Under the pieces are notes generated by a model. That model worked only from the letters and a program-made list of their open reading frames with translations, searched no databases and was not told the DNA's origin. This document shows positions 1,707 to 63,600 of a stretch of 64,000 nt of DNA, piece after piece. The DNA comes from Granulosicoccus sp. (GTDB lineage: Bacteria; Pseudomonadota; Gammaproteobacteria; Granulosicoccales; Granulosicoccaceae), in assembly GCA_965224525.1 (NCBI GenBank), contig OZ245050.1, positions 410,021-474,020 on the forward strand. Direction: 5' to 3'. The position numbers and the translations under genes were made by a program. Numbering within the stretch: the stretch's first letter is position 1; every line of letters starts with the position of its first letter.

Positions 1707-2456
1707 TCAAGCGGGCAGTGGCAGTTCATTATTCACCAAAAAACAATCGATGGGAAAGCGGATGACTTCCCGGGCGTCTACTTGCTTGAATGACACGTCC
1801 GTTGCACTGGTTTCGCAAAACCACTGGCTCATCTCCCGAGGCTTTTTCTGAACAAAGGCATTCGGGGTAAACAGGCCCACACAGGTGCCTTTTTCCGGGT
1901 CACGTACAGATTGATACTCAAACACATCAACCGCTGCCTCTCTCATGCTGGAGCCCAACAATTGACTGGACTGGTAGCTCGACGGGTGAGCCAACTCAGC
2001 AAGGTATTCATCGAACGGCGCGACGTGAAGTTGTATACCGCTGGATGTTTTATAGTTGACAGAAAACAGAGTGTGCTCGGTACGCATCTTGTCCTTGACA
2101 GAATCTGCATCCATCGAAAACCAGAAGACCATCCGGTAGTAGGCTGACTCAGCCAACGCCACCTCAATACCACAACCGCCATAGAATATTCCAGGCTCGT
2201 GAGTACGGCCAAAACGAGACCCCCACTTCAATGGCGGATAGCGAAATGGTGTTTTCAAAAGATAGTGATAAGTGTCGCTGTCTTCCGGGAATGACGGCTT
2301 GATGCTCTCGAGCATCTCCTCCAGAAGCGCTTGCTCCTCAAGGGTGTCTACATAGCTCATCGTGGCTACTTGCTGCTGGCTCTCTACCAGTCGAAACAGT
2401 TCACCCTGCAGGAAGCCTGTATGTTGCGATCCTTTACGAGTCTGCCAGATCATCAA
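1707..2456 (-). CDS. RES-domain toxin of a RES-Xre (ParST/MbcTA-type) TA module
   Basis: A 249-aa protein with the conserved ...RYPPLKWGSRFG...FYGG... core of RES-domain proteins. It overlaps the upstream Xre-like antitoxin by 4 nt. A paralogue lies at 17001-17774. Confidence 0.8.
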   Translation of the reverse strand: MMIWQTRKGSQHTGFLQGELFRLVESQQQVATMSYVDTLEEQALLEEMLESIKPSFPEDSDTYHYLLKTPFRYPPLKWGSRFGRTHEPGIFYGGCGIEVALAESAYYRMVFWFSMDADSVKDKMRTEHTLFSVNYKTSSGIQLHVAPFDEYLAELAHPSSYQSSQLLGSSMREAAVDVFEYQSVRDPEKGTCVGLFTPNAFVQKKPREMSQWFCETSATDVSFKQVDAREVIRFPIDCFLVNNELPLPA

Positions 2457-2824
2457 AGCTTGGCGCGGATAGCATCAGTGAATCGTAAAACCGTCATCAG
2501 ACCCTGAATAGTTTCAATCTGTTTTGCCGGCACGCCTCCCGTAAGCTTGTTGGGAGAATGCATGAAGTGGCTAATCCATTCCCTGTCACCACCGGTGAGC
2601 GCGAACAAGGCACGTGCCAGACGTACCAGTAACAGAGCCAGTTCGCCTGGCTTGGATTTCGGGTCAAGAGACGGGTTCTGTTTCAGCCGGCTGATTGCCG
2701 TTCTATGCATCCCCAGCACTGTCGCCAGTTCAGACTGCTTGAGCCCGAGCTGTTCCGCTGCATTCAGTACCGCTTTAACCAATACCGCTTCAGGGGAGGG
2801 TTTGATAGATTCCAATGCTGGCAC
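2453..2824 (-). CDS. Xre-like (DUF2384-type) antitoxin partner of the RES toxin (ParS/MbcA-like)
   Basis: A 123-aa protein carrying an HTH (LKQSELATVLGMHRTAISRL) and the C-terminal DUF2384-like ...LTGGVPAKQIETIQGLMTVL motif. It sits immediately upstream of the RES gene in the same operon. Confidence 0.75.
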   Translation of the reverse strand: MPALESIKPSPEAVLVKAVLNAAEQLGLKQSELATVLGMHRTAISRLKQNPSLDPKSKPGELALLLVRLARALFALTGGDREWISHFMHSPNKLTGGVPAKQIETIQGLMTVLRFTDAIRAKL

Positions 2825-2829
2825 AGGTA

Positions 2830-2876
2830 GTATCGCAATGTTTTATATGCACATATTATATGCGATATGTGCGTAT
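2830..2876. promoter_or_regulatory. Nested inverted repeats (gtatcgca...tgcgatat; atatgcacatat...atatgtgcgtat) upstream of the Xre-like antitoxin. Putative operator.
   Basis: The inverted repeats were read directly from the sequence. They lie just 5' of the antitoxin start on the minus strand. Confidence 0.4.
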
Positions 2877-3033
2877 TTCACAATCTGAAGCAAGCGATGA
2901 CCGATCATGAGTGGTCATCGCTATGCCAACAGAGCACCACACGGGCGTTGTCATAATTTGAACAACAAGCCCGCCGAATAACACTGACTCCGTGTACACT
3001 GCGTTCGTGTCTTTGCTGGCTGACTATCCGAAA

Positions 3034-3267
3034 ATGACAAAAAACATCACATTAAGTGCTAATGAACAGCTCATTGAACTGGCGCGCAGCAGAGCGCAAA
3101 AAAGGCATACAACGCTGAATGCCGAATTTCGCCTGTGGCTCGAACAGTATGTGGGTGAAGATCATGAAGGTAAAAGCCGTGTTCATGCTTATAGACGGCT
3201 AATGGCTTCACTTGGGGCCGTAAAACCCGGTCGGCACTTTACCCGGGATGATATGAATGAGCGATAG
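3034..3267 (+). CDS. VapB-like antitoxin (RHH/Arc-MetJ-like); internal Met start chosen
   Basis: MTKNITLSANEQLIELARSRAQKRHTTLNAEFRLWLEQY... It overlaps the downstream PIN gene by 11 nt. The ORF track frame starts at 2992. Confidence 0.55.
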   Translation: MTKNITLSANEQLIELARSRAQKRHTTLNAEFRLWLEQYVGEDHEGKSRVHAYRRLMASLGAVKPGRHFTRDDMNER

Positions 3268-3739
3268 ATTCTTTATCGATACAAATATCCTGATCTACAC
3301 ATTTGACCGATCCAGCCCATCGAAGCGTAAAACAGCAATCAGTCTGGTTGAAACAGCTTTAGCCTCCGGCCTCGGATGTATCAGTTTTCAGGTTGTTCAG
3401 GAATGCCTGAATGTGTTGACCCGAAAATTTCGTGTGCCGCTGGATGCCGAACAGGCGCGCAATTATCTACAAACCACATTGATGCCTGTTTGTCGCGTGC
3501 ATTCGTCTATTCCGCTCTATGAAAGAGCGATTGATCTACACGAACGATGGCAGTTCAGCCTGTACGACACGTTGATTCTTGCTTCAGCGCTTGAGGCAAA
3601 CTGTTCTATTCTGTTCAGTGAGGATATGCAGCATAAACAGAAGATTGAATCCCTGGTGGTTATCAATCCGTTTACCGATACCCAACAGGTCAATGATGTA
3701 ACGGACAAATATCAGGTAGATAGCCCGGAGCATCCGTGA
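3257..3739 (+). CDS. vapC: PIN-domain ribonuclease toxin VapC
   Basis: MSDRFFIDTNILIY... carries the N-terminal acidic PIN motif. The 160-aa size and the overlap with the upstream small antitoxin gene fit a VapBC pair. Confidence 0.8.
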   Translation: MSDRFFIDTNILIYTFDRSSPSKRKTAISLVETALASGLGCISFQVVQECLNVLTRKFRVPLDAEQARNYLQTTLMPVCRVHSSIPLYERAIDLHERWQFSLYDTLILASALEANCSILFSEDMQHKQKIESLVVINPFTDTQQVNDVTDKYQVDSPEHP

Positions 3740-3902
3740 ATAGCACAGGTAACAGGTTGTAAATTCATAGTGCGTAGTAGGTTAGGCCCGCGGTTCCGAT
3801 ATTTTGGGCTGCTACATCGGCGAGTCAAAACGGCGGCTGGCAAAAGCGTTTGCCGATGTGGCCTTTTTGCGTTTGAGGTTGTGGGTGCCGTATGCTCTGC
3901 GT

Positions 3903-4460
3903 ATGAGCAATGCAGCGATCGACCGCGCAACTTACGTGGATATTCTGAAGTTGCCGGAAAACATCACGGGTGAAGTCATCAACGGGGTGCTTTATCAGCA
4001 ACCACGCCCGGCGCCGAGGCATGCCTATGCATCGTCCCGCCTGGGGGCGGCCATCAATTCCCCGTTCGATCGTGGGAAAGGCGGCCCGGGTGGCTGGTGG
4101 ATTCTTGATGAACCGGAATGCCACCTGGGAGCCGATATCCTGGTTCCGGATATCGCAGGCTGGCGCCGTGAACGCATGTCCTCTTTGCCGGATACGGCCT
4201 GGTTTGAATTGCCGCCTGACTGGGTTTGTGAGGTGTTGTCGCCTTCAACTGCCAGTAAAGACCGTATAGATAAACAGGGTGTATACCTGCGTGAGGGTGT
4301 TGGATTTCTCTGGTTTATCGACCCGGAGGCTAAAACACTGGAAGCCTTTCAGTTGACATCGGGCAGTTGGCTGCTCATTGCGGCACTAAGTGGTGAGGAT
4401 CAGGCGGCGGTTGCACCTTTTGACGACGTGCCGTTTGATCTGGGTGAGTTGTGGGCATGA
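3903..4460 (+). CDS. Uma2-family (DUF820) PD-(D/E)xK-like putative endonuclease
   Basis: The ...LSVDDY.../...ELI.GE.....P...H motif class is present. The internal Met gives a 185-aa product, typical of Uma2. The ORF track frame opens at 3804. Confidence 0.65.
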   Translation: MSNAAIDRATYVDILKLPENITGEVINGVLYQQPRPAPRHAYASSRLGAAINSPFDRGKGGPGGWWILDEPECHLGADILVPDIAGWRRERMSSLPDTAWFELPPDWVCEVLSPSTASKDRIDKQGVYLREGVGFLWFIDPEAKTLEAFQLTSGSWLLIAALSGEDQAAVAPFDDVPFDLGELWA

Positions 4461-4573
4461 GATGGCGCAGGCATAGAGGCGCTATTCTCGTCCGGGCATC
4501 GTTAAACTCGTGAGTGTCACCTGAGTGGCCCCACCATGGGACTAACATACCCGGAAAGGTACAGTAACAGATC

Positions 4574-7252
4574 ATGACAACCCGTAAATCAACCAAACTG
4601 ACACTGCACGACAAACTCTCTCGGCTGACATTTGTGCAGGCCTGCAAACTGCTGGGGCCCGATGGCGCCGGGTTTATCAGTCGCGGCGGGCGCTTCGACA
4701 TCGATATCGATCAACAGGTGACTCTGACCCGCCAGCAGTTCCGTCTTAACCTTGTTGGGCGCAAGCCATCGGTTGTCACCATTAAACTGGCAGACACCGC
4801 TACCCGGCGACTGGCCTGGCATTGCTCGACATCAAACGGTGCCTGCGATGAAGTGGGGGCTGCGTTGTCGCTGATTCTCGAAGAGAAAACTGCACTGGGG
4901 CTGGCAGCGGCACCGGATAGCCCGTTGCTACGTGCTGATCTCAGTGAGCTGGAGATCAACGCACTCGAAGTGACTGCGCGTGAAGAACGTGCAAAAAAAG
5001 AGCGCATGACGCTACGCTCAGCCAACCCCAAAACCCCCTGGACCGACTACCAGGTCACCAATAAAGCGTCGGGTAAAACCTATCGAGTGGCGTTGCGTGG
5101 GCATCATCCGGGTGAGTCGTATTGTTCCTGTCCCGACTATCGCAAAAATACCTTTGGCCTTTGCAAGCACACGATTCATGTATTGAACAAGGTGAAGCGC
5201 AAGTTCAGTGCCGCACAATTGCGACGCCCATTCAAACTCAAAGAGATTATCGTCTACCTGCAGTACGGTAAATCAGTGCAATTGCGCGCGGGTGTGCCCG
5301 ACAAGATTGATCGTGACGCTGAACGCTTGTTAAAACAGTACCGTAAGGGTTCCGTCAAGTCTATTCCAGCGCTGTTACGCGCCGTTGGAAAACTGGAGAA
5401 CGCGGGCCACACGGTCACTATTTATCCCGACGCCGAGCAGTACATCCAGCAGCGTTGCTGGCAGGCAAGAATCGAAAAACATGTAGCAGAGATTCGCAAG
5501 AAGCCAGCGAAACATCCATTGCGCAAGACGTTGTTGAAAGCCGAGTTGCTGCCGTATCAGCTCGATGGCATCGCGTTTGCGGCAGGAGCCGGCCGCGCCG
5601 TGCTTGCCGACGATATGGGTTTGGGTAAAACCATCCAGGGCATAGGTGTGGCGGCGCTGCTCAAGCGTGAAGCGAATATCTCGAGAGTTCTGATCGTTTG
5701 TCCCGCGTCACTCAAATCACAGTGGCGTGCAGAGATACACAAATTTTCTGATTTGGATTGCCAGCTGGTGGTGGGTAGTTCCGATAGCCGTGCCGCCCAG
5801 TATGACAACGACTGTTTTTTCACAGTGTGCAACTATGAGCAGGTGCTGCGGGACATATTGAGCATTGAGCAGGTACGTTGGGATCTCATCATTCTTGACG
5901 AAGGTCAGCGCATCAAGAACTGGGAAGCCAAGACCACACGCGTGATCAAGTCATTGAAGTCCCCTTTCGCCCTGGTGTTGTCGGGCACGCCACTGGAAAA
6001 TCGTATTGATGAGCTGTACAGCATTGTCGAGTTTATTGACGATCGCCGCCTCGGCCCCGACTTCCGATTTTATCAACGGCACCGCGTGCTGGATGACAAT
6101 GGCCGGGTTATCGGCTTTCAACACCTTAAGGAACTGCGCAAGAACCTCAAACCGGTGCTGCTGCGGCGCACGCGCGCCTCGGTGCTCGATCAGCTCCCGC
6201 CACGTACGACGGATATCGTTCGCATAGCGCCCACCGAAGAACAGCTCGAGTTACATGGTGCGCACATGAGAATCGTCAACAGCGTCATTGGTAAACCTTT
6301 TCTGAGCGAGATGGATTTGCTGCGTCTGCAAAAAGCCCTGTTGATGTGCCGCATGTCAGCTGACAGCACCTTCCTTTGCGACAAGGAGGCACCCGGTTAT
6401 TCCAGCAAGCTTGAAGCCATTGCGGATTTGTTCGATCGCATATTCAGCGATCCACACCACAAGGTTGTGTTGTTCTCCGAGTGGACGACCATGCTGAATC
6501 TGATTGAACCGCTACTGAAAAAACGCTCTATCGGTTTTGTGCGCCTGGATGGATCTGTGCCACAGAAAAAACGCCCGGCGCTGGTCAGTCAATTCGAGGA
6601 AGACAAGCAGTGTCGCTTGTTCATGGCTACCAATGCGGGTTCAACAGGGCTTAACCTGCAAATTGCCGACACCGTGATCAATGTGGACTTGCCATGGACA
6701 CCGGCGCTGCTGGAACAGCGCATTGGCCGCGTACACCGGATGGGGCAGAAGCGCCCCGTGCATGCATTTGTTCTGGTAACCGAAGACACTCTCGAAGAAA
6801 GCCTGTTGGCCACGCTGTCTGCCAAGCATGAGCTGGCACTGGCAGTACTTGATCCGGATTCGGATGTCGACTCCGTTGATCTGACCACCGGTATTGAGGC
6901 GCTGAAACAACGTCTCGAAGTGTTGCTCGGTGCACAGCCAGAAGCGGAGCGTGATGAGTCACAACGACGTGACGTCGACACCCAAACCAGAGCGCTGGCT
7001 GATCGACAACGCGTGTCGGAGGCTGGCGGACAGTTGCTGAGCGCGGCGTTTAACTTTCTCAGTGAAGTGATACCAGCACAGCCTGACACACCAGCATCGC
7101 AGGCACTGGCGACAGACCTGAAGCAGCGTTTTTCCGACTGTGTTGAACAGGGTGAAGATGGCAAACCGCAATTGACAATTTCGTTACCTGATAATGCGGC
7201 ACTGGATACCCTGGCTGAGTCGTTGGCGCAGTTGTTGGCTGCCCGGCAGTAG
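4574..7252 (+). CDS. SWIM zinc-finger plus SNF2-family (Swi2/Snf2) ATPase/helicase
   Basis: SWIM motif CSCPDYRKNTFGLCKHTIH. SNF2 ATPase motifs LADDMGLGKT, DEGQRIKN and a C-terminal HELICc region (LDGS...ATNAGSTGLNLQ...). Length 892 aa. Confidence 0.85.
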   Translation: MTTRKSTKLTLHDKLSRLTFVQACKLLGPDGAGFISRGGRFDIDIDQQVTLTRQQFRLNLVGRKPSVVTIKLADTATRRLAWHCSTSNGACDEVGAALSLILEEKTALGLAAAPDSPLLRADLSELEINALEVTAREERAKKERMTLRSANPKTPWTDYQVTNKASGKTYRVALRGHHPGESYCSCPDYRKNTFGLCKHTIHVLNKVKRKFSAAQLRRPFKLKEIIVYLQYGKSVQLRAGVPDKIDRDAERLLKQYRKGSVKSIPALLRAVGKLENAGHTVTIYPDAEQYIQQRCWQARIEKHVAEIRKKPAKHPLRKTLLKAELLPYQLDGIAFAAGAGRAVLADDMGLGKTIQGIGVAALLKREANISRVLIVCPASLKSQWRAEIHKFSDLDCQLVVGSSDSRAAQYDNDCFFTVCNYEQVLRDILSIEQVRWDLIILDEGQRIKNWEAKTTRVIKSLKSPFALVLSGTPLENRIDELYSIVEFIDDRRLGPDFRFYQRHRVLDDNGRVIGFQHLKELRKNLKPVLLRRTRASVLDQLPPRTTDIVRIAPTEEQLELHGAHMRIVNSVIGKPFLSEMDLLRLQKALLMCRMSADSTFLCDKEAPGYSSKLEAIADLFDRIFSDPHHKVVLFSEWTTMLNLIEPLLKKRSIGFVRLDGSVPQKKRPALVSQFEEDKQCRLFMATNAGSTGLNLQIADTVINVDLPWTPALLEQRIGRVHRMGQKRPVHAFVLVTEDTLEESLLATLSAKHELALAVLDPDSDVDSVDLTTGIEALKQRLEVLLGAQPEAERDESQRRDVDTQTRALADRQRVSEAGGQLLSAAFNFLSEVIPAQPDTPASQALATDLKQRFSDCVEQGEDGKPQLTISLPDNAALDTLAESLAQLLAARQ

Positions 7253-9565: not shown

Positions 9566-10090
9566 TCAAAAATCGATCTCCACCGGTTCATTGATCACAA
9601 GCATCCATTTAGTGTCTTTTTCGTGCAGTCCCGTAACTAATTCAGTCAGTGGTTTGGCAGAAGGGTCCAGGAGTTTCATCGACTTGGCCTTTCTGGCAAA
9701 CGGTTCCAGTGCCTTGCCTTGACGTGTGTGACCAGTATGGTCCAGCAGATAACCAAGCCGGCGCACAGCTGTGTTCTCGTAGGCCATGGCCGCTTTCGTC
9801 AGTTTACCTGGATCGGCCTTTGCTCCAATATCCCGGGCAATCTGGGCTACACCATCAATGCCTGCAGCCTTGTGGAAATAACGGGTGCAATCCAGGAGGG
9901 TCAGCTCCACACCGGCCACCTTGGCGAAACCCGCCTCGCTTTTCATTTGCGAAAGCCCATCGGGCAGATTGATTTTGGCAAAGGTCGCCGGAGCCGGGTA
10001 AATGAACTGGAGCCGGTGACGGCCTAAAGTAAATGCCCGCAACTGCTTCGGGACAATTACTTGAAAGACCATAGTCGCCTGATCGGCCAC
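9566..10090 (-). CDS. Possible AbiEi-type (type IV TA antitoxin) C-terminal-domain protein. Orphan, with no adjacent AbiEii NTase.
   Basis: The ...RLGYLLDHTG... C-terminal motif is recalled from the AbiEi family. This identification is uncertain. Confidence 0.3.
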   Translation of the reverse strand: MADQATMVFQVIVPKQLRAFTLGRHRLQFIYPAPATFAKINLPDGLSQMKSEAGFAKVAGVELTLLDCTRYFHKAAGIDGVAQIARDIGAKADPGKLTKAAMAYENTAVRRLGYLLDHTGHTRQGKALEPFARKAKSMKLLDPSAKPLTELVTGLHEKDTKWMLVINEPVEIDF

Positions 10091-10176: not shown

Positions 10177-10479
10177 GTGGGTATATATGGGTATGAAGCT
10201 TACTACCTGGCTTTGCGCCAAACGCAGAGAACGATAGACAATCCCCGACCCGATTGGCAACCCTGGATTGTCTATTTTCTGCGCGCTCTTCAACAACAAA
10301 AACGCCGTCTGGAGAAAAAGATCGAGCGAGAGCGCATCACCATAGGCACCTTACCCGAGCTGTCGCTTCTGATTGTCGACGCTGTGAATGAGCGTGGCCG
10401 CATCGCCATGAGCGAGATAGTTTCCCTTACCGGTGCAAACCGCAACACGATCAAAAAGCACCTTGCATCATGCGCCTGA
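10177..10479 (+). pseudogene. C-terminal fragment of a Fic/DOC-family protein (winged-helix tail only)
   Basis: The 100-aa ORF resembles only the C-terminal wHTH region of Fic proteins (...RNTIKKHL...). There is no Fic core motif and no upstream partner. Confidence 0.35.
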
Positions 10480-10489
10480 TAAAAACCGC
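10466..10489. repeat. 24-bp direct repeat copy 1 (catcatgcgcctgataaaaaccgc), flanking the BrnTA cassette
   Basis: Identical apart from one extra A to 11100-11124. It contains ATGCGCCTGATAAAAACCGC, which is the start codon and first codons of the nuclease-helicase gene. Confidence 0.75.
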
Positions 10490-10498
10490 TTCGAAATT

Positions 10499-10732
10499 TC
10501 AGGGTTCTACATCCTGGCAGTCGGGATTGGCGTTCTTTTCCTGGTCATTTATCAGATTTCTCAGTGCTTCGTTAACCGATTCTTCCGTTGGGAAGGCGGC
10601 GGCAACATCCGGACTCAGTAAAACCAGGTTTTTGCTTTTCTGGTAAGCCGCGTAGTGTTTGCCACGAACACCATTGCTCAAATTTTTGTCGGAATAGTCT
10701 GGCCTCATATCATCGATGTCATTTGTCTTCAT
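10499..10732 (-). CDS. brnA: BrnA-type antitoxin
   Basis: A 77-aa protein immediately downstream of, and overlapping, brnT. The BrnTA gene order is toxin first. C-terminal RHH-like region. Confidence 0.7.
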   Translation of the reverse strand: MKTNDIDDMRPDYSDKNLSNGVRGKHYAAYQKSKNLVLLSPDVAAAFPTEESVNEALRNLINDQEKNANPDCQDVEP

Positions 10733-10991
10733 AAATATTTCTCTCGTGCTTGTTCATGTCTCTGGCGCTGATAATTCGAACTTCATTCTCGGAATCGGTA
10801 TGCGAGACTACTAAAAACCTTTGAAATCTCGAACAACCAAAAGTCAAATACCTGTACTCCAACCGAGAATGGTCCGGATCTGAAAATGTTACTGCCAGCG
10901 GATCATTAAAAACCGTAGTAGCTTCGTGGAATGTGACGCCGTGTTTCTTTTCGTTCGCGACGCCTTTATATTTGTCCCATGTAAACTCCAT
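10719..10991 (-). CDS. brnT: BrnT toxin (DUF497 RelE-fold ribonuclease)
   Basis: MEFTWDKYKGVANEKKHGVTFHEATTVFNDPLAV... matches the conserved BrnT N-terminus. Length 90 aa. Confidence 0.8.
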   Translation of the reverse strand: MEFTWDKYKGVANEKKHGVTFHEATTVFNDPLAVTFSDPDHSRLEYRYLTFGCSRFQRFLVVSHTDSENEVRIISARDMNKHERNIYEDK

Positions 10992-11099
10992 CCGAACATT
11001 CTAACAGTGGTGTCAAAAATCAACAAATCATGAATATTTCTGCGATATATCAAGCTTATGCATCTGAAAACGCCGTAGTTCGGTAGCCAATGGTCTTCA

Positions 11100-11124
11100 C
11101 ATCATGCGCCTGATAAAAAACCGC
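11100..11124. repeat. 25-bp direct repeat copy 2 (catcatgcgcctgataaaaaaccgc)
   Basis: Second copy of the repeat at 10466-10489. It overlaps the start codon of the 11104 gene. Confidence 0.75.
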
Positions 11125-11631
11125 CCGCACTACTCGCCAACCGATCTGGTTCGCTACCTTGGTAGCCCCTATGCCTCCTGGTATGACCGCTATGCCTTGC
11201 ACAAACCGGAACACGTGCAGTGCAAGGACCCGGAAGATGCCATGTCGAAGACGCTTGCGCATCGCGGTTATGCTCATGAGGAAGGGGTCACCGAGGCGCT
11301 AAAGGCAGATGGCATGACAGTTGCCAAACCCGAGAGTAAAAACAAGGAGCAACAACTGGCCGAAACCATCGCCTTGATGCATAGCGGTGTGGATGTGATC
11401 GAACAGGCGGTATTGAGCCTCGATAACATTACCGGTTATGCGGATTTTCTGGTGAAGGTGCCAGGGGCCAGTGATCTGGGTGACTGGCACTATGAGGTCT
11501 GGGATGCCAAGCTGGCGCGCAGTGTCAAACCATCGTTCGTGATTCAGCTGTGTTGTTATACCGAGATGGTGGTTGCCATTCAGGGGCGGCAACCTGAGTC
11601 GGTGCGTAGCGCTTGGCTCGAACGAGACTGA
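11104..11631 (+). CDS. N-terminal part of a RecB-like PD-(D/E)xK nuclease (TM0106-family type). It reads into the next ORF through a frameshift.
   Basis: GYADFLVKV...YEVWDAKLARSVKPSFVIQLCCY is the RecB-family nuclease motif III (D-x-K). The frame ends at TGA 11629-11631 while the homologous protein continues in the overlapping frame. Confidence 0.7.
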   Translation: MRLIKNRPHYSPTDLVRYLGSPYASWYDRYALHKPEHVQCKDPEDAMSKTLAHRGYAHEEGVTEALKADGMTVAKPESKNKEQQLAETIALMHSGVDVIEQAVLSLDNITGYADFLVKVPGASDLGDWHYEVWDAKLARSVKPSFVIQLCCYTEMVVAIQGRQPESVRSAWLERD

Positions 11632-14569
11632 GACAGTTCAGCTCAACACTTGCTACGCCTTCTACCTGCGGCTCAAGCAGCAGTTTATGCAGGCGCAACA
11701 GGCATGGTCGCCAGAGACACCGCCCGATCCTGCGTATTACAAGTATCACGGGCACTGGTCGAAGCAGGCCAGGTCGGAGCTGGCAGAGCGCGATCATCTG
11801 TGCTTTACAGCAACCATCACGCGGACCCAGATCAAGCACTTTCATGCGGCGGGTATTGACACCCTGCAACAGCTGAGTGAAACGGCTCTTGAGCATGTAC
11901 CAGGTGTATCCCCGGTGCTTCTCGATCGGCTGAAAGTGCAGGCTCGGTTGCAGCGCAGCAGTATCGGCAAGGCGCGCCCCGACTATCAACTGGTCGATCA
12001 TGACAAGGAACCGGCGACCGGCCTGCAGCTACTGCCACCGCACTCGGCTCAGGATGTGTTTTTCGATATGGAAGGCTTTCCGTTGATTGAGGACGGGCTG
12101 GAATACCTGTGGGGTTGTACGTATTTCACTGATAACGGTGAACGAACGTTTCTGGATTTCTGGGCGCACGATGCGGTCGCTGAAAAACGTGCCTTTGAGA
12201 ATATCATCGATTGGGTCTATGCCCGTTGGAAGGCTGACTCATCAATGCATATCTACCACTATGCAAGCTATGAAGTGTCAGCCTGTCGCCGTTTGATGGG
12301 CCGCTTTGGCACACGCGAGTATGAGCTTGACCAGTTGTTGCGTAACGAGGTGTTTGTTGATCTCTATCGTGTTGTGCGTCAAGGGCTGATCGTTGGGGAG
12401 CCGCGTTATTCGATCAAGAATATCGAGCTGCTCTACCGTGGCAAGCGTGAGACGGAAGTTAGTGGTGGCGGTGAATCCATCGTTGTGTATGAGAACTGGC
12501 GTGAAGCGTTTGCCGCAGGTGAGGAGGGTGGTTGCTGGCAAAGCTCCGAAACGCTAAAGCAGATTCGTGACTACAACATCGACGATTGCAACTCTACTCA
12601 GGAGCTGGTGGACTGGTTACGCGCCCGGCAGCTCGAAGCAAATATCCCCTATGTCGGCGGTGCTGCTGAGGTGATTGTGGCGGAACCGAAGGAAGAGCAG
12701 CTGGCCGTACAGATATTGCGTGATCGTTTAATGAAGAAATCCGACGCGTTGCTTGAAACTGATCCTGACGAGGCAGCGCTATGGCAAACACTGGGTGGTG
12801 TACTGGAATTTCACTGGCGCGAGGCCAAGCCCGGATTCTGGCGTTTGTTTGATCGCCTGGGTGCAGACCCCGCCGAGCTGGCAGATGATTCCGATTGTCT
12901 TGCGGATTGCGTACGCACAGAAGCTCCGCCTTTCAAGGACAAGCCATCCGCTCGTAATCTCACCTATGAATACCGCTTTGACGCGGGTCAGGAATTCCGT
13001 GGAGCTGGCAAGACATTTCAAATCGCCGGTTATGAAACAGAAGACGGCAAGAGCTTGAAAGTGGATCTGATAGCGGATAGCAGTGATCTGGAGAATGGTC
13101 TGGTCGCGCTGAAATGCCGGCAAGAACCGCCGGATTTTCTGTCATTGGTGTTGTCAGATTTCATTAACCCGGCGCCCATTCCAAAGGCTATCGCCGCGGT
13201 TGTGACTGACATTGAAGCAGGTAGTGGGAGTCACGGCGCGGTACTGTCATTGCTGCGACGCGATAAGCCGACATTTGATGAATCATTCATGCGGCAACTG
13301 GCACAACGCAGCGATGCGATTGCGCCCAGTAAATGCCCGACAGAAAAACTCCGGCAGATCACTGATGCGGTTAACTCATTGCAACAGAGTTGCCTCGTGA
13401 TTCAGGGGCCACCGGGCACTGGAAAAACCTATACAGCAAGTTGTGTTATCGGGAAGTTGTTGAAAGATGGCCATAAAGTGGGTGTGGCGAGCAACAGCCA
13501 TGCGGCGATAAACAACTTGTTACTGGCTACAGCGGGCTACTGTTCGGAAGTCAGTGTGGACGCTGCCATTACCTGTACCAAATATACCGAGGAGGGGATG
13601 GAGGAGGCCGGTGTGATGCAATGTGCCAATGCAGTGTTGGCAAATAATGTGCAACCCGGCAGTCTGGTAGGCACAACGGCCTGGGGTTTTTCTCGAGACG
13701 ACATGGCAAACACGCTGGACTACCTGTTTGTTGACGAAGCCGGGCAAGTGGCATTGGCGAACGTCATCGGTATGAGCCGTGCTGCTGATAACCTGGTTTT
13801 ACTGGGTGATCAAATGCAGTTGGGACAACCGACACAGGGAACCCATCCGGGCAAAAGCGGATCATCGGTGCTGGAATATATGATGGGTGAGCAAGCGACA
13901 ATAGCGGAAGACGAAGGGGTCTTTCTTGGTGCCGGCTTTCGCATGCACTCTGCCGTTAACCAATTTATCAGCAAGCAATTTTACGATGGTCGTTTGCAGT
14001 CACGCCCCGATAATGACGAACGGCGATTACTGTTGGATGCTGCACTCCATTCGGAGCTGTCAGATACCGGTGCGGGTGTGTTCTTTATACCGGTGACACA
14101 TGACGGCAATACGCAAAGTTCTGTAGAGGAGGCGCAACTTATCGCAGAACTGGTTAGCGGTTTGTTACGTGGTGAGCTGCGGGTTAAAGATGGATGCCCG
14201 CGCCCGCTGGTTATGGATGACATATTATTTGTCGCTCCCTACAACCAGCAGGTCAGAGTACTCAAAGACACACTGGGGCCGGACGCCAGAGTTGGCAGTG
14301 TAGACAAGTTTCAGGGTCAGGAAGCAGCGGTTGTGTTTTTAAGCCTGTGTGCCAGTGATGCCAGCGAGTCACCGCGCGGCCTTGGCTTTCTGCTCGACCG
14401 TCACCGAATCAATGTCGCTGTATCACGCGCACAATCAATGGTGATTATTGTCGGGCATCCGGAACTGGTCAGCGGGCCGGTTGATACGATGGCAGCGCTA
14501 GCGCAGGCGAATTTGTTTGCAGCGTTGGTGGAACAATCGTACCGACAGGGTGAAATTTCCATCGTATGA
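11573..14569 (+). CDS. Continuation of the same gene: rest of the TM0106-type nuclease region followed by an Upf1-like SF1 helicase (AAA_11/AAA_12). The intact protein would be about 1150 aa.
   Basis: Helicase motifs LVIQGPPGTGKTYT, YLFVDEAGQ, VDKFQGQEAAVV and INVAVSRAQ were read directly. The nuclease domain's motif III (ORF1) and the remainder of the nuclease region (ORF2) lie in different frames that overlap at 11573-11631. Confidence 0.75.
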   Translation: MPFRGGNLSRCVALGSNETETVQLNTCYAFYLRLKQQFMQAQQAWSPETPPDPAYYKYHGHWSKQARSELAERDHLCFTATITRTQIKHFHAAGIDTLQQLSETALEHVPGVSPVLLDRLKVQARLQRSSIGKARPDYQLVDHDKEPATGLQLLPPHSAQDVFFDMEGFPLIEDGLEYLWGCTYFTDNGERTFLDFWAHDAVAEKRAFENIIDWVYARWKADSSMHIYHYASYEVSACRRLMGRFGTREYELDQLLRNEVFVDLYRVVRQGLIVGEPRYSIKNIELLYRGKRETEVSGGGESIVVYENWREAFAAGEEGGCWQSSETLKQIRDYNIDDCNSTQELVDWLRARQLEANIPYVGGAAEVIVAEPKEEQLAVQILRDRLMKKSDALLETDPDEAALWQTLGGVLEFHWREAKPGFWRLFDRLGADPAELADDSDCLADCVRTEAPPFKDKPSARNLTYEYRFDAGQEFRGAGKTFQIAGYETEDGKSLKVDLIADSSDLENGLVALKCRQEPPDFLSLVLSDFINPAPIPKAIAAVVTDIEAGSGSHGAVLSLLRRDKPTFDESFMRQLAQRSDAIAPSKCPTEKLRQITDAVNSLQQSCLVIQGPPGTGKTYTASCVIGKLLKDGHKVGVASNSHAAINNLLLATAGYCSEVSVDAAITCTKYTEEGMEEAGVMQCANAVLANNVQPGSLVGTTAWGFSRDDMANTLDYLFVDEAGQVALANVIGMSRAADNLVLLGDQMQLGQPTQGTHPGKSGSSVLEYMMGEQATIAEDEGVFLGAGFRMHSAVNQFISKQFYDGRLQSRPDNDERRLLLDAALHSELSDTGAGVFFIPVTHDGNTQSSVEEAQLIAELVSGLLRGELRVKDGCPRPLVMDDILFVAPYNQQVRVLKDTLGPDARVGSVDKFQGQEAAVVFLSLCASDASESPRGLGFLLDRHRINVAVSRAQSMVIIVGHPELVSGPVDTMAALAQANLFAALVEQSYRQGEISIV

Positions 14570-14682: not shown

Positions 14683-15231
14683 ATGGATAACGAACAGATC
14701 AGTGTTCTGCTCAAAGTAACGCGAGTGCTGGATGAGTGCGGTATCGCTTACATGGTCAGTGGATCGACCGCCCTGAATTTCTACGCTAGACCTCGCATGA
14801 CACGGGATATCGACCTGGTGATCGAATTGCGAGAGACCGGTGTGTTGGCTCTGGTGGGGGCTCTGGTGGGTGAATTCTATGTTGACGAAGACTCGGTGGC
14901 TGGAGCTGTTAGCAACCAGTCTATGTTCAACGCCATTCACAACGACACGCTGGTCAAGGTTGATTTCATCGTCCGTAAGGATGAGCCCTACCGGAAAACC
15001 GAATTCGAACGCCGGCGATCAGTAATGCTGGGTACGGCGCAGATCATGGCGGTAGCACCTGAAGATCTGATACTGTCAAAACTGCTGTGGAGCGCAGACA
15101 CACTTTCGACAATGCAGACCGACGATATTCGCAACCTGTTGAGCTCGGCCGAATTGGATCAACGCTATCTCGATCACTGGGCGCAGGCATTGGGCGTATC
15201 AGAACGTCTCCTGGAAATTCACCAAACATGA
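14683..15231 (+). CDS. Minimal nucleotidyltransferase (MNT/pol-beta fold) protein
   Basis: SGSTALNFYARPRMTRDIDLVIE fits the hG[GS]x9-13Dh[DE]h NTase signature. Length 182 aa. Confidence 0.6.
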   Translation: MDNEQISVLLKVTRVLDECGIAYMVSGSTALNFYARPRMTRDIDLVIELRETGVLALVGALVGEFYVDEDSVAGAVSNQSMFNAIHNDTLVKVDFIVRKDEPYRKTEFERRRSVMLGTAQIMAVAPEDLILSKLLWSADTLSTMQTDDIRNLLSSAELDQRYLDHWAQALGVSERLLEIHQT

Positions 15232-15499: not shown

Positions 15500-15600
15500 T
15501 TCGGGCGAGTCTGGATCGGCTCAACCCGGGTCAAAGCGGTGCATCGGTGCTGGATTATCTGATGGGTGAGCATGCAACGATTGCCCAGGACAAAAGACAG
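15500..15600 (+). pseudogene. Decayed fragment homologous to the SF1-helicase gene (compare 13841-13920)
   Basis: NPGQSGASVLDYLMGEHATIAQD matches HPGKSGSSVLEYMMGEQATIAED of the 11573 gene at both amino-acid and nucleotide level (about 80% nt identity over about 65 nt). The flanking frame is broken. Confidence 0.5.
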
Positions 15601-58975: not shown

Positions 58976-59228
58976 GCGTTGGACAACGGCACAATAAAGT
59001 CAGTCTACGCGTGTAGATTATTCCGACCGGGCATCAATCGAGCTGAATTACGTTGATTTGCCGACAAGTGTGCTGATTCAGGGGTTAAATGAGGTTGTCA
59101 ACACAATAATATCACTATATAGCTAAACAATAATCTTAAATGGTTTGCATATATATTGACTTACAAGAGTTTATAGTATAGATATAGCTAAACAAATCGT
59201 AACTCTAATGCAAGGTCGAGATCACCCA

Positions 59229-59696
59229 ATGGGCATCAAGGCAGTTGTTTTAAAGCAATATCAGGAAAAGGTGAACCAGGCTTTAAAACAGTTTGGTGGC
59301 ATCGTCAGGCCGAACTCTGAGGGATGGCTTAAAACAGCACGCAAGGCGCTGGGTATGTCTGGCTCGCAAGTGGCAAAACGCCTTGGCGTTACCAAGGGGC
59401 GGGTTTCACAGGCGGAATCAGCCGAACTATCAGGAAGTGCCACGCTCAAGAGTATGGAAAGCATGGCGCAAGCCATGAATTGCCGTTTTGTTTATGCCGT
59501 CATTCCCGAAAAAGAGATCGAAAACGTTATCAGAGATCGCGCTGTTTTAAAGGCAAACGAGCAGATTGCAGTGGCATCCACACAGATGGCTCTTGAAGCG
59601 CAATCGTTGAATGATGAACAACTGGCATTTGAAGTTGATCGCCTTGCCTCTGAGATCATCAAGAAGATGCCTTCCGATTTATGGAATGATGAATGA
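59229..59696 (+). CDS. Mobile mystery protein A (XRE-type HTH)
   Basis: HTH ...GMSGSQVAKRLGVTKGRVSQAE... It is translationally coupled to a Fic/DOC gene, which is the canonical mobile-mystery A/B arrangement. Confidence 0.7.
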   Translation: MGIKAVVLKQYQEKVNQALKQFGGIVRPNSEGWLKTARKALGMSGSQVAKRLGVTKGRVSQAESAELSGSATLKSMESMAQAMNCRFVYAVIPEKEIENVIRDRAVLKANEQIAVASTQMALEAQSLNDEQLAFEVDRLASEIIKKMPSDLWNDE

Positions 59697-60286
59697 GTGA
59701 CAACCTGGGCGAGCCAGATGGAGCAACGCCTCTTGATCCTGATGAGGTGGAAGGGCTTCGCTTTAGGCATGTTACAACCAGAGACGAGCTTGACCAGCTG
59801 GAGCAAGCCAATATCGTTGAAGGATTGCAGTGGCTTAAAAGGCAAAGACACACAGATTTCTTAAGCGAAGGGTTTGTGTGCGATCTGCATAAACGGTTAT
59901 TTGGACAAGTCTGGAGTTGGGCGGGTGCATTCCGCCAAACAGAAAAGAACATCGGTGTTGATTCAGTTCAGATCGCAATTCAATTGCGACAGTTACTGGA
60001 TGATGCACGCTATTGGATAGAACATGAGATCTATCCGGCAAAGGAACTCGCGGCACGCTTTCATCATAAGCTGGTACAGATCCACTTGTTTCCAAATGGG
60101 AATGGTCGCCATGCACGCATAATGGCGGATGCGATACTCACCAGGCTAATGGCTGAACCTGCAATTGATTGGGCTGGAGGCTATAAGTTGGAAAATATGA
60201 ATGAACGCCGTGATCAATATATTGCGGCGCTACGAGCGGCCGACAAACATGATTTTTCCAAACTGCTGGAATTTGTCGATGCGTAG
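59693..60286 (+). CDS. Mobile mystery protein B (Fic/DOC-family AMPylase-like)
   Basis: Fic motif HLFPNGNGRHAR. Length 197 aa. Confidence 0.8.
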   Translation: MSDNLGEPDGATPLDPDEVEGLRFRHVTTRDELDQLEQANIVEGLQWLKRQRHTDFLSEGFVCDLHKRLFGQVWSWAGAFRQTEKNIGVDSVQIAIQLRQLLDDARYWIEHEIYPAKELAARFHHKLVQIHLFPNGNGRHARIMADAILTRLMAEPAIDWAGGYKLENMNERRDQYIAALRAADKHDFSKLLEFVDA

Positions 60287-60667: not shown

Positions 60668-63600
60668 TCAAAATTCAATTCGCAGCCCCAGCTTTAACCA
60701 GTGCTGTGAAACGTAGTCATGCAATATGCGTGTCTCGTAAAACAGATACCCGCTCTTGCCGTTCCTGAAAACTGCACTAGTACCAAGGCCCACATTGATG
60801 TATCGCGTATCCCGCGGGTTGCCATTGACGGTAAATGCGGATTGCGTGGGATCGTTCTGAAATGCTGCTTCTATTCCCTCTTTTCTGTCTTCGTATTCAA
60901 ATTCTGATTCAATTCGTACTTGCGGCAGGAATACCCCGCGCCGGGTGTTGATGGTACGTGACAACTGTCCGCCAAGGGCGATGGTCGTCGACTTCACCGC
61001 ATGAGAACTTATATTCAGTACGGAGCCGAAGCCTGCAGTTTCACTGTTGGCTGACTCCGAGTATGCGTCAACATCGGCCACTGTTAGCGACAGTCGACTA
61101 TAGGGTCCAAATTCCCAGGCCCCTGCGTGTAAGTTGCTGCCTACACCAACAGTGAACGACAATACGCTGGCATCGGTGTTGCCTATGGCAAATTGATCGG
61201 GCGCACCGATAAAGTTTATACGCCGTTTGACATCGTATCGGTTACGACCGACGTCAAGCACTGCGTCGAAATACCCTTTGTCGGCTTTGTACCAGGTACC
61301 AAACAGCGTGACGCTGAAAGCACTGAGTTTGGCGGTGCCCTCATCGGGCGTGAAATCTCCTCTTTTGCTGGCAATACCCAAACCTGCGCCAAATACAGCA
61401 TTATCGTTCAGGCGATAGTCAACACCAATGGTCAATCCACTGCTTTGAACGTCAGCATTGCGCTGATTGTCATCTCCATCCACTGTGCCAACGGACACGG
61501 TGCCATTGGCGAACACGCCGAGTCTTGATGCCAGCTGACTGTCAGAGGATGCACCACCGCCACTCATGGTGTTTTGAGCAACCTCAAGCACACTGCCTGG
61601 AATCTGTTGCCCATATAGAATCAGGTTCAACCCGGACAGATCAAGGGCATTGCCGTTGTCACCGGAGCGCCGGCCGCCGGAATGCCGGCCGCCGGAATGC
61701 CGGCCGCCGGAATGCCGGCCACTACGAATGGCGTTGATTCTTGAATACACATTGGTGATCTGCAAGTCCGCTGTGTCAATTATCGAGTCGGCAAAGAAAA
61801 ACAATTCTTCCGGTGCAAGTCGTTCGAGCGCACCAGCCAGCGAGCCATCCTGCAAGCGCGCGTCCAGCGACAGGCATGTGGTACGCAAATCGAGCTGTGC
61901 AGTTGTCAGTGGCTGGTTGTTGTCAAACTGATCGGACAGTGCCTCACAAGCGGTGTCCAATGCACGGCCTGTTTCTGCATGGTTTGCACTCAGTCCGCTG
62001 GCTGCGAAAAATCCGGAACGTATCGTAAACGCAACTTCACCTTGCGCCAGCTCTACCGTGGGTGGATTGATACGTGGCGTCATCGCAGGGCGGGCAGCAC
62101 TGGCCGCACTTGTTACAGAGCCTGGTACCGCAATGACACGCACAAATCCACGCGAGAGAATGCGTATCTGATTACTGGTAAGTCCGTCCGTATCGGTTTC
62201 CGTTCTTTCACCACTGAGTAGCTCGGCAGAGCCTGCAGGCATCACACGCCAGATCACAGAGACACCTTCCACTTGCGTGTCGCTGTTCAGCGTAGCTGAG
62301 GCTTCTATGACTAGTGGATCAAGCGTATCACCCGGCAAACCGCTTTGTCCGTTACCGGAAACTATAGATAAACGGTAGGGCAGGGCATCCTCAGCGGGTT
62401 GTTCAGGAGCAGAGCTGTCACCAATCTGTACCTGCATTTGAGCCTGCTGTATTTGCTCATTGCCAAGCGGTGTTGCATTTGACAAGCGAATGACGAACGT
62501 TTCAGTTTCTTCAATCAAATCATCCGAGTGAATAAGAACGGTAATTGAACGGCTACCACTTTCGCCATCAGCCCAGGTAACAACCCCGGAACTGGCGGTA
62601 AAATCCTCGCCCGCCGTTGCCGTTTCACCGCTAACAACGTAGTCGACTGTCACCGGTCCGTCATCACCACCCAAACGTTCAATGTCAAAAATCACCTGGC
62701 CCTGCAATTCCGTTGCGCGCACCGTAGCGAGCGAAAATCCAACCTGACCCACATTGGTGCTGTCGTTTATTGTGATGTCAGCTACGGCAGCACCCACTTC
62801 CAGTGCGGCGTTCGCTGATGACACCGGGTTGAGTAATACCACTTCAAAGGCTTCTTCTGTCTCCAGATCCACATCGCCAAGTATGTCGATACTGAATGAC
62901 TTTGAATCACTATCGCTATCTGCCCAATTCAGGGTACCGCTGGCCTGCGTGAAATCCGCACCGGCCAAAGCCGAGCCGCTGACCGTTTCATACTGTATGG
63001 ATACGGCGCCCTCAGACTCGCCGATACGTTGTACACTTAGCACCACGTTTGCGTCATCCTCGGTGACAACAAAAGATGTGTTTGCAAACTGCAGAGTGCC
63101 TGCATCGAGCTGCACCGGCACGACAACCGGATGGTCGACATTGCGGATAGTGACAGTCGTGCGCGAAGGTGACCCCAGTTGTTGACCACCCAGTGGTTTG
63201 GCGTCGCTGAGTATCACCGAAAATTGTTCATTCGGCTCTGAATCGGTGTCATGGACAATCGGGATGCTCAAGTTTTTCGGGTTGCTATCGCCATCATCCC
63301 AGCGCAGCACACCCGTAGAACTCACGAAGTCTTCTGCTGCGCTGGCCGTACCTGCCTCGGTGGTGTAAACGACACTAACTTCACCATCGGTACCGCCACG
63401 GCGCAGAACCGAAAGGCTGATCGTGCCACTGTCCTCATCAACTGCAACGCTACTGTCGGCAAACTGCAACAGGCCAAACTGCCCGTTAACGATATTGCTG
63501 ATTGTTACTGTTAACTGTGCGGGACTACCGATAACTTCATTACCGGGGGTCGCATTAGACAACACGATAGTAAACGTCTCGGCAACCTCCACATCAGTAT

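Follow-up and report, generated by a model that had tools for sequence, protein, structure and literature searches.

Duplicated start of a resident gene around a brnT toxin–antitoxin pair in Granulosicoccus: a candidate case of insertion with target duplication

How toxin–antitoxin (TA) pairs arrive, without a carrier, at 'ordinary' chromosomal positions has so far been poorly explained. In a 64-kb stretch of DNA from Granulosicoccus sp., a marine gammaproteobacterium (the whole stretch that was analysed is called the window in the following), a brnT toxin gene and its partner are bracketed by two direct repeats that hold the beginning of the adjacent nuclease-helicase gene. The explanation favoured here, with a confidence that goes a little beyond an even chance, is that the window records a Kobayashi-type insertion with target duplication, in which a brnT/antitoxin addiction module of horizontal origin would have entered at the 5' boundary of the nuclease-helicase gene, inside a Granulosicoccus TA/defence island. 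The features on which the argument is built are, from left to right:

10195–10464, plus strand: internal fragment of a Fic-family gene forming the left flank; it matches residues 237–326 of a 349-aa homologue and is cut short on either side.
10466–10489, no strand: left (orphan) repeat copy, CATCATGCGCCTGATAAAAACCGC, which repeats the nuclease-helicase gene from position −4 to +20, the A-run being one A shorter.
10490–11099 (610 bp), minus strand: the insert, made up of the TA operon and its upstream region only, with a GC content of 43%.
10499–10732, minus strand: gene in the antitoxin position (77 aa), which shares 14 nt with brnT and belongs to a conserved partner family outside Pfam.
10719–10991, minus strand: brnT, gene of a BrnT-family ribonuclease toxin (90 aa; Pfam PF04365 BrnT_toxin, E 4.9e-25, profile positions 1–77 of 77).
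10992–11099 (108 nt), no strand: intergenic region between the divergent start codons of brnT and of the nuclease-helicase gene, AT-rich in its brnT-proximal half.
11100–11124, plus strand: right repeat copy, CATCATGCGCCTGATAAAAAACCGC, including the native ATG (11104) and the codons MRLIKNR of the nuclease-helicase gene.
11104–14569, plus strand: gene of a TM0106-family RecB-like nuclease with RNase_H_2 and SF1 helicase (AAA_11/AAA_12) domains, approximately 1155 aa as reconstructed.

An exact 20-mer, CATCATGCGCCTGATAAAAA, is present at positions 10466–10485 and 11100–11119. The complete copies measure 24 nt on the left and 25 nt on the right, an A-run of five and six residues, respectively, preceding a common CCGC, so that they are 96% identical over 25 columns. 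Exact and mismatch searches confirmed this pair, as it had been described from the sequence alone, and located CATCATGCGCCTGATAAAAA(A)CCGC twice in the window, at 10466–10489 and 11100–11124; the chance expectation for such matches in the window was 0.01. A widespread repeat unrelated to the cassette had been named as a possible refutation, and within the 64-kb window no third close copy was found with up to three mismatches allowed. The N-terminus encoded by the right copy, MRLIKNRPHYSPTDL, coincides in alignment with those of 15 nuclease-helicase homologues, and the right copy is therefore the native start of the gene, again as proposed. The duplicated segment extends from −4 to +20/21 with respect to the ATG. 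Thus, the insertion does not lie 'precisely at the start codon', and the proposal that it duplicated the first 24 bp of the gene, supported by analogy and by composition as far as a duplication is concerned, needs to be corrected for the segment involved.

No substitutions separate the left copy from the resident gene start, and the comparison supports the reading of this copy as a duplicate of the resident nuclease-helicase gene's own start. An origin as debris of a helicase paralogue, a fragment of which is found at 15526–15594, was rejected, the fragment being only 80% identical in contrast with the substitution-free orphan. The fragment itself (69 nt, 24 aa; 15523–15594 in a separate listing) is 80% identical in nucleotide and 67% in amino acid sequence to helicase positions 13847–13915, and is the relic of a paralogous nuclease-helicase beyond the AbiEii-like nucleotidyltransferase gene at 14683–15231. 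Both repeat copies are also present in two further assemblies of the same Granulosicoccus organism; a one-off assembly artefact is therefore rejected.

The insert's GC content contrasts with that of its flanks (52% and 56%), and the drop coincides with the repeat borders. Since it falls exactly between the repeats, and since the nearest BrnT relatives are at most 73% identical and belong to other phyla, the reading of the cassette as a foreign insert is supported. At NCBI the 90-aa product is named BrnT family toxin (Granulosicoccus sp.); toxins of the BrnT and HEPN families act as RNases. The 77-aa partner gave no match to Pfam (BrnA included) or NCBIfam families up to an E-value of 10, and the partners at three related ('sister') loci were likewise without a Pfam or NCBIfam match at this limit. 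It is, however, 36–48% identical to the corresponding partner genes of seven other brnT loci, with the family pattern MRPEY..GVRGKY..NLVLL.PDVA.AF..VNEALR, and for this reason it is taken, from sequence comparison, as a genuine cognate family that is not verifiably 'BrnA'. Of the content first assigned to the 610 bp, brnT (by its Pfam profile), a partner gene and 108 nt of upstream sequence were found as described, but the identification of the partner as BrnA was not, for want of a Pfam match. No consensus sigma-70 promoter was scored in the 108-nt region upstream of brnT, promoter-like matches being at the level expected from shuffled sequence with none in the repeat or in the brnT upstream region, and no terminator-like site was found at the repeat, so that a role of the repeat as terminator or promoter was rejected. 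Only 9 nt lie between the stop codon of the antitoxin gene and the left repeat.

The relatives of this brnT gene show how often such a bracket occurs. Loci encoding BrnT relatives (34 from genomes and 80 from metagenomes) were fetched and searched for direct repeats, flank against flank. Bracketing direct repeats were found at 10 of 32 genome loci and at 13 of 48 eligible metagenome loci, that is, approximately 30% of the related brnTA loci, from other phyla, are repeat-bracketed. Control anchors yielded one pair for 113 positions of the window and approximately six pairs for 129 positions of the loci, mostly low-identity tandem paralogues. The repeats were sorted into two classes, namely integron attC sites and duplicated termini of ordinary host genes. 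The latter, 38–320 nt long, were found at five or more other independent sites:

L007: 3' end of a TonB-receptor-like outer-membrane protein (OMP) gene, 58 nt.
L008, L009 and L051: 3' end of the same TonB-receptor-like OMP gene, 136 nt.
L010, L011, L012 and L055: 3' end of a 123-aa gene, 59–82 nt.
L066: 3' end of an ABC-2 permease gene, 48 nt.
L006: overlapping stop/start junction of a GDP-mannose dehydratase gene and a DUF433 gene, 38 nt.
L033 (identical with L109): 5' end of a GspE ATPase gene, 320 nt.

In the 3'-end cases the stop codon terminates both repeat copies, and the geometry of L033 is that of the window, with an intact gene divergent from brnT and the orphan copy past the antitoxin gene. 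At five more loci the repeats are non-coding or unclear. The inserts are uniformly minimal (542–1152 bp), and remains of further element genes are absent from them. Cassettes from different sites are homologous only over the promoter (TTGAC-N17-TATAAT), brnT and the partner gene, and a discrete mobile unit with conserved ends was not found. The attC class (GCCTAAC...GTTAGGC, hairpin-forming) comprises L046, L050, L065, L084 and L100, in arrays with a spacing of 0.7–0.9 kb; some relatives of the window's brnTA pair are, therefore, bona fide integron cassettes, in agreement with the listing of BrnT/BrnA among integron-borne TA systems (PMC7370490).

Three of these loci have features of their own. 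At L010 (WOR-3 metagenome-assembled genome (MAG) JAPLUO010000265.1), positions 2582–4764 hold, in this order, host gene, repeat, MNT/HEPN pair, repeat, brnTA and repeat; the first two repeats have approximately 65 nt in common beyond the stop codon of the gene, a stretch of repeated GACCACT heptamers comes before the last one (approximately 4630–4700), and L011, L012 and L055 are without the MNT–HEPN unit and one repeat copy. At L006 (Spirochaetaceae MAG SKQU01000151.1, 1651–1710) the duplicated junction leaves a mini-open reading frame, MSELRRQ*, the TGA of which overlaps the ATG of brnT, which suggests that the inserted toxin gene is translationally coupled to the GDP-mannose dehydratase operon; this insert additionally carries a DUF2283 gene. 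L128 (ENA ERZ25070668 ctg37964), with the closest BrnT (73%), lies among DDE_Tnp_1, IS91 Y2 and IS66 transposase genes and a group II intron reverse transcriptase gene, a context that represents a different mobility route for the same TA family.

For one of the sister cases, the site without the insert is available. Orthologues of the OMP gene, 88–96% identical, occur without brnTA, and L122 carries the final 136 nt of the gene once, running on into the sequence found after the right repeat of L008. Compared with L122, the L008 locus thus has an additional insert of 872 nt and the 136 nt twice, and L122 is a verified empty site for L008; no microhomology was found at the junctions of this L008/L122 case. 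The two repeat copies of L008 differ from each other at 5 of 136 positions and from the empty allele at 3–4 of 136, and those of L007 differ mutually at 2 of 58 positions as compared with 9–10 of 58 with respect to the L008 group; by their sequences, the sister repeat copies are resident-like. Between L008 and L009, the brnTA coding region is 97.3% identical and the OMP gene only 86.1%, and the empty L122 (92.8%) is nearer to L008 than L009 is. Taking these values into account, the L008/L009 cassette has moved, with its repeats, between lineages or has been lost at this one site; the repeat segment is 95.6% identical between the two genomes, as opposed to 86% for the host gene.

In the proposed sequence of events at the window locus, the insertion would have produced a second copy of 24 nt or more of the target, namely 4 nt upstream of the start codon and the first 20–21 nt of the coding sequence. 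One copy would have been kept with the gene, preserving its start codon, and the other would have been stranded past the antitoxin gene, beside the Fic fragment. The joining step may have consisted of staggered breaks followed by fill-in or, alternatively, of template switching. Once in place, the insert would persist, as recombination between the repeats would delete the TA pair and lead to post-segregational killing. The repeat–cassette–repeat unit may then spread to related genomes by way of the homology of the repeats, a step proposed from the sister case only.

Several observations weigh against this reconstruction. No empty site for the window locus was found in the collections searched, in which the lineage is without close relatives: every protein looked up was a singleton at 90% identity, exact-protein look-ups returned only contigs of the same organism with the insert present in all, no near-identical DNA was found in E. 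coli genomes and plasmids, and the closest BrnT is 73% identical to that of the window. The comparison with related genomes lacking the insert, which had been recommended, therefore succeeded for L122 and L008 but not for the window itself, where a 'duplication on insertion' rests on analogy because there is no empty site. At 24/25 nt, the repeat is also shorter than the >30-bp threshold of Furuta et al. Furthermore, the implied state before the insertion places the ATG of the nuclease-helicase gene 4 nt after the truncated Fic fragment, which is odd. The 3' end of this fragment reads …AAGCACCTTG, the Fic homology stops at 10464, and the orphan repeat starts 1–2 nt further; in the predicted empty site, a single copy, CATCATGCGCC…, would lead from the fragment into the nuclease-helicase gene. 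The gene may already have been in a degraded context or, alternatively, a longer orphan copy may have been shortened by a later deletion. Even for the restriction–modification (RM) units in which it was described, this mode of insertion has no established biochemical mechanism. In addition, the three closest BrnT relatives (69–73% identity, two independent sites) have no bracketing repeats, so that the signature is frequent but not universal, and the spacers between the cassette core and the repeats cannot be aligned between sites, at variance with a discrete mobile unit with fixed ends.

The surroundings of the insert need to be considered before the alternatives are weighed. The best homologues of the nuclease-helicase are 54% identical and are encoded directly behind McrBC or HsdR, with gaps of approximately 50 nt and without brnTA. 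In the window, the gene is frameshifted (+1) near 11590–11605 (region 11573–11631), giving a 175-aa and a 998-aa open reading frame (ORF). Because the identical 175-aa product is called on three contigs, the frameshift is probably genuine, with the gene a pseudogene, and not a fault of the sequencing. The TA/defence island extends from 1.7 to 18.8 kb and includes two RES–Xre pairs, two PIN genes, Uma2, SNF2, a NERD-helicase, a truncated AbiEi, an AbiEii-like gene and NOV_C; several of its genes are broken. The AbiEi gene (9566–10090, minus strand) is without its N-terminal domain and has the Fic remnant as its neighbour, and the island has the appearance of a graveyard of defence-gene fragments. 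One RES–Xre operon (1707–2824, minus strand) is flanked, approximately 55 nt off each end, by CACA(G/A)TCTGAAGCAAGC at 1634–1650 and 2879–2895 (16/17 identical; E 0.006 in a search of 800 × 800 nt, marginal after nine tests), and this bracket may be a second, shorter case of the same signature. A search around the other TA pairs of the window gave nothing beyond this marginal 17-nt repeat, and the repeat at brnT, which it had been recommended to look for beside other TA cassettes, has no further copy in the window. Farther away, a second pair of HTH and Fic-domain genes, apparently intact, is found at 59208–60286, and four tandem 15-nt units (CCGGAATGCCGGCCG) are found at 61662–61720 within an ORF of 1091 aa on the minus strand.

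Among the alternatives, the one closest to the sequence-only reading assumes att-type or Campbell-type integration: a brnTA circle carrying a copy of the 24 nt would have recombined at the gene start by the action of a tyrosine or serine recombinase provided in trans, or of RecA at minimal homology, or else the cassette would be the undeletable rest of a larger integrative element, the integrase and other genes of which were lost. Integrative elements often target the ends of genes and bring a replacement end, as phage 21 and e14 do in icd, and a length of 24 nt is not unusual for an att identity block. The tandem arrangement of two different cassettes in L010, with the same repeat between them and approximately 65 nt shared beyond the gene end, resembles att accretion; the higher conservation of the repeat segment than of the host gene between L008 and L009 is consistent with a repeat that travels with its cassette; and spacers that differ from site to site are those expected of remnants of different elements. 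However, the scan of approximately 40 ORFs across the window revealed no gene for an integrase, excisionase or transposase, and the minimal sister inserts hold no relics of other element genes. The repeats of the window, L006, L007–9, L010–12, L033 and L066 differ in length (24–320 nt) and no common core sequence was found among them; the sister repeats, unrelated to each other, derived from their targets and 38–320 nt long, argue against one sequence-specific recombinase. A circle that depends on homology, moreover, cannot explain the arrival at new, unrelated targets, and in the sister case both copies match the resident lineage. Nor is the repeat similar to known recombination sites: the best local scores against the dif consensus were 6–9, within the range of shuffled sequences (mean 5.3, maximum 10), so that a dif/Xer site at the borders was rejected, and attC is dealt with below. 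Thus, the step from the length of the repeat to an integrase or att site, as first suggested, is not supported, and this explanation is considered unlikely, although a repeat as short as the 24 nt of the window may be an att core. Classical transposition had been judged improbable from the start, and rightly so: scores for terminal inverted repeats at the insert ends equalled the mean of shuffled sequences, both for the window and for 10 sister inserts, and no transposase was found in the window. A MITE (miniature inverted-repeat transposable element) or other transposon was rejected on the same ground and by the duplications of 24–320 nt in place of a fixed short length.

It is also conceivable that brnTA already lay beside the nuclease-helicase gene and that the orphan 24 nt are debris of an unrelated duplication or deletion in a decaying island, for example of a partial tandem duplication followed by a deletion that also truncated Fic. 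The broken genes nearby (AbiEi N-terminally truncated, Fic doubly truncated, the nuclease-helicase gene frameshifted, the 69-nt paralogue fragment) speak for such a secondary rearrangement, as does the Fic break point, which is the outer edge of the orphan and requires at least one other illegitimate event there. But the copies bracket exactly the compositionally foreign segment, the bracket recurs at independent sites of relatives far above the control level, at one of them alongside an empty site that was verified, and brnTA is absent upstream of the homologous nuclease-helicase genes found elsewhere; by taking these facts into account, a rearrangement of this kind is regarded as improbable. 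Least credit of all is given to an integron origin, with IntI placing a cassette, intact or since decayed to a relic, at a secondary site, even if the attC cassettes among the brnTA relatives and the published listing of BrnT/BrnA in integrons would make it plausible. On folding, the repeat regions of the window gave z values of −0.28 to +1.22 on both strands, as compared with −3.27 for the attC control from L046, which folds with its cores paired (GCCTAAC to GTTAGGC). The repeat is therefore not attC-like, in answer to the search for integron sites that had been proposed, and the test effectively refutes the integron reading. No attC hairpin or R''/R' core is found at either insert end, there are only 9 nt between antitoxin stop codon and repeat, and the window is without intI and without a cassette array. 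Insertion by IntI at secondary sites is not known to duplicate 24 nt of target.

The favoured reading, insertion with target duplication, finds its model in RM units, for which the term 'insertion with long target duplication' is used (Nobusato et al. 2000, Gene 259:99; Furuta, Abe & Kobayashi 2010, PMC2853133). Their signature consists of repeats across start or stop codons, a deviant GC content and no mobility genes (PMC2853133, PMC3874152), and the cassette of the window shares it in being a small addictive unit without mobility genes, bracketed by duplicated resident sequence, with repeats across the start codon of an adjacent gene that is left intact, as is often the case for the start or stop codon in RM units, and with an insert of deviant GC content. 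Variable repeat length and empty sites in relatives (here L122 for the sister L008) are further points of likeness, and in line with the criteria of Furuta et al. the insert is smaller than 20 kb (610 bp) and contains no other mobile-element genes. The same criteria ask for a target duplication of more than 30 bp, to exclude site-specific recombination (PMC2853133), a length that the 24/25 nt of the window, unlike the 38–320 nt of the sister loci, do not reach. The cargo also differs, being a type II TA pair with an RNase toxin. A review by the same authors attributes this insertion mode to RM systems only (PMC3874152), and literature searches returned no description of TA cassettes with target duplications, RM units being the precedent found. 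It has been suggested that DNA double-strand breakage by the restriction enzyme drives the insertion (PMC2853133). As brnTA encodes no DNA nuclease, breakage by the unit itself cannot be the driving force here and, with BrnT and HEPN toxins both being RNases, DNA cleavage is not the factor common to both types of cargo; what RM and TA cargo do have in common is predicted post-segregational killing, which penalizes deletion from repeat to repeat.

Other known elements resemble the window in part. Like the TA cassettes of integrons (e.g. the Vibrio superintegron; PMC7370490), it holds a promoter-bearing TA pair of less than 1 kb between direct repeats, and the same brnTA clade includes integron cassettes (L046, L100), but its repeats are the start of a protein-coding gene, without hairpin, RYYYAAC/GTTRRRY cores, intI or array. 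With integrative elements of gene ends (prophages, integrative and conjugative elements, integrase-less cis-mobilizable elements) it shares repeats derived from a host-gene end, an intact gene and a possible tandem accretion (L010), in contrast with which there is no integrase, the insert measures 610 bp, and the repeats, 24–320 nt across sites, have no common core. IS1634 of Mycoplasma produces long, variable target duplications. The same is true of IS1630 (cited in PMC2853133), and the duplications considered here are, like those of these elements, far longer and more variable than the usual 2–14 bp; unlike them, the window has neither transposase nor terminal inverted repeats.

Taken alone, the window feature is one more small TA insertion in a defence island. 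Gene-terminus brackets around TA cassettes across phyla, on the other hand, represent a known, unexplained insertion mode with a new class of cargo. The only carrier-free route that has been described for addictive modules is insertion with long target duplication, documented for RM systems, and the finding of RNase-type TA pairs with the same signature in several phyla makes the DNA-cutting hypothesis testable and less likely. This evidence, to which a verified empty site and a cassette common to diverged hosts belong, points instead to post-segregational killing as what both types of cargo share and what keeps repeat-bracketed inserts in place. The more general proposal, that TA pairs (brnTA, and HEPN–MNT in L010) use an RM-like route of long, variable target duplication, entering at gene boundaries without a recombinase of their own, locked in place by predicted killing and then spread between related genomes together with their repeats, is advanced here tentatively and is regarded as possible rather than probable. 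For practical purposes, duplicated gene termini around inserts of less than 1 kb provide a searchable mark of recent acquisition in genomes and MAGs. If the proposal is true, the route would depend on addiction or on host repair rather than on DNA cleavage by the element, and it would represent a general, recombinase-free mode of mobility for addiction modules.

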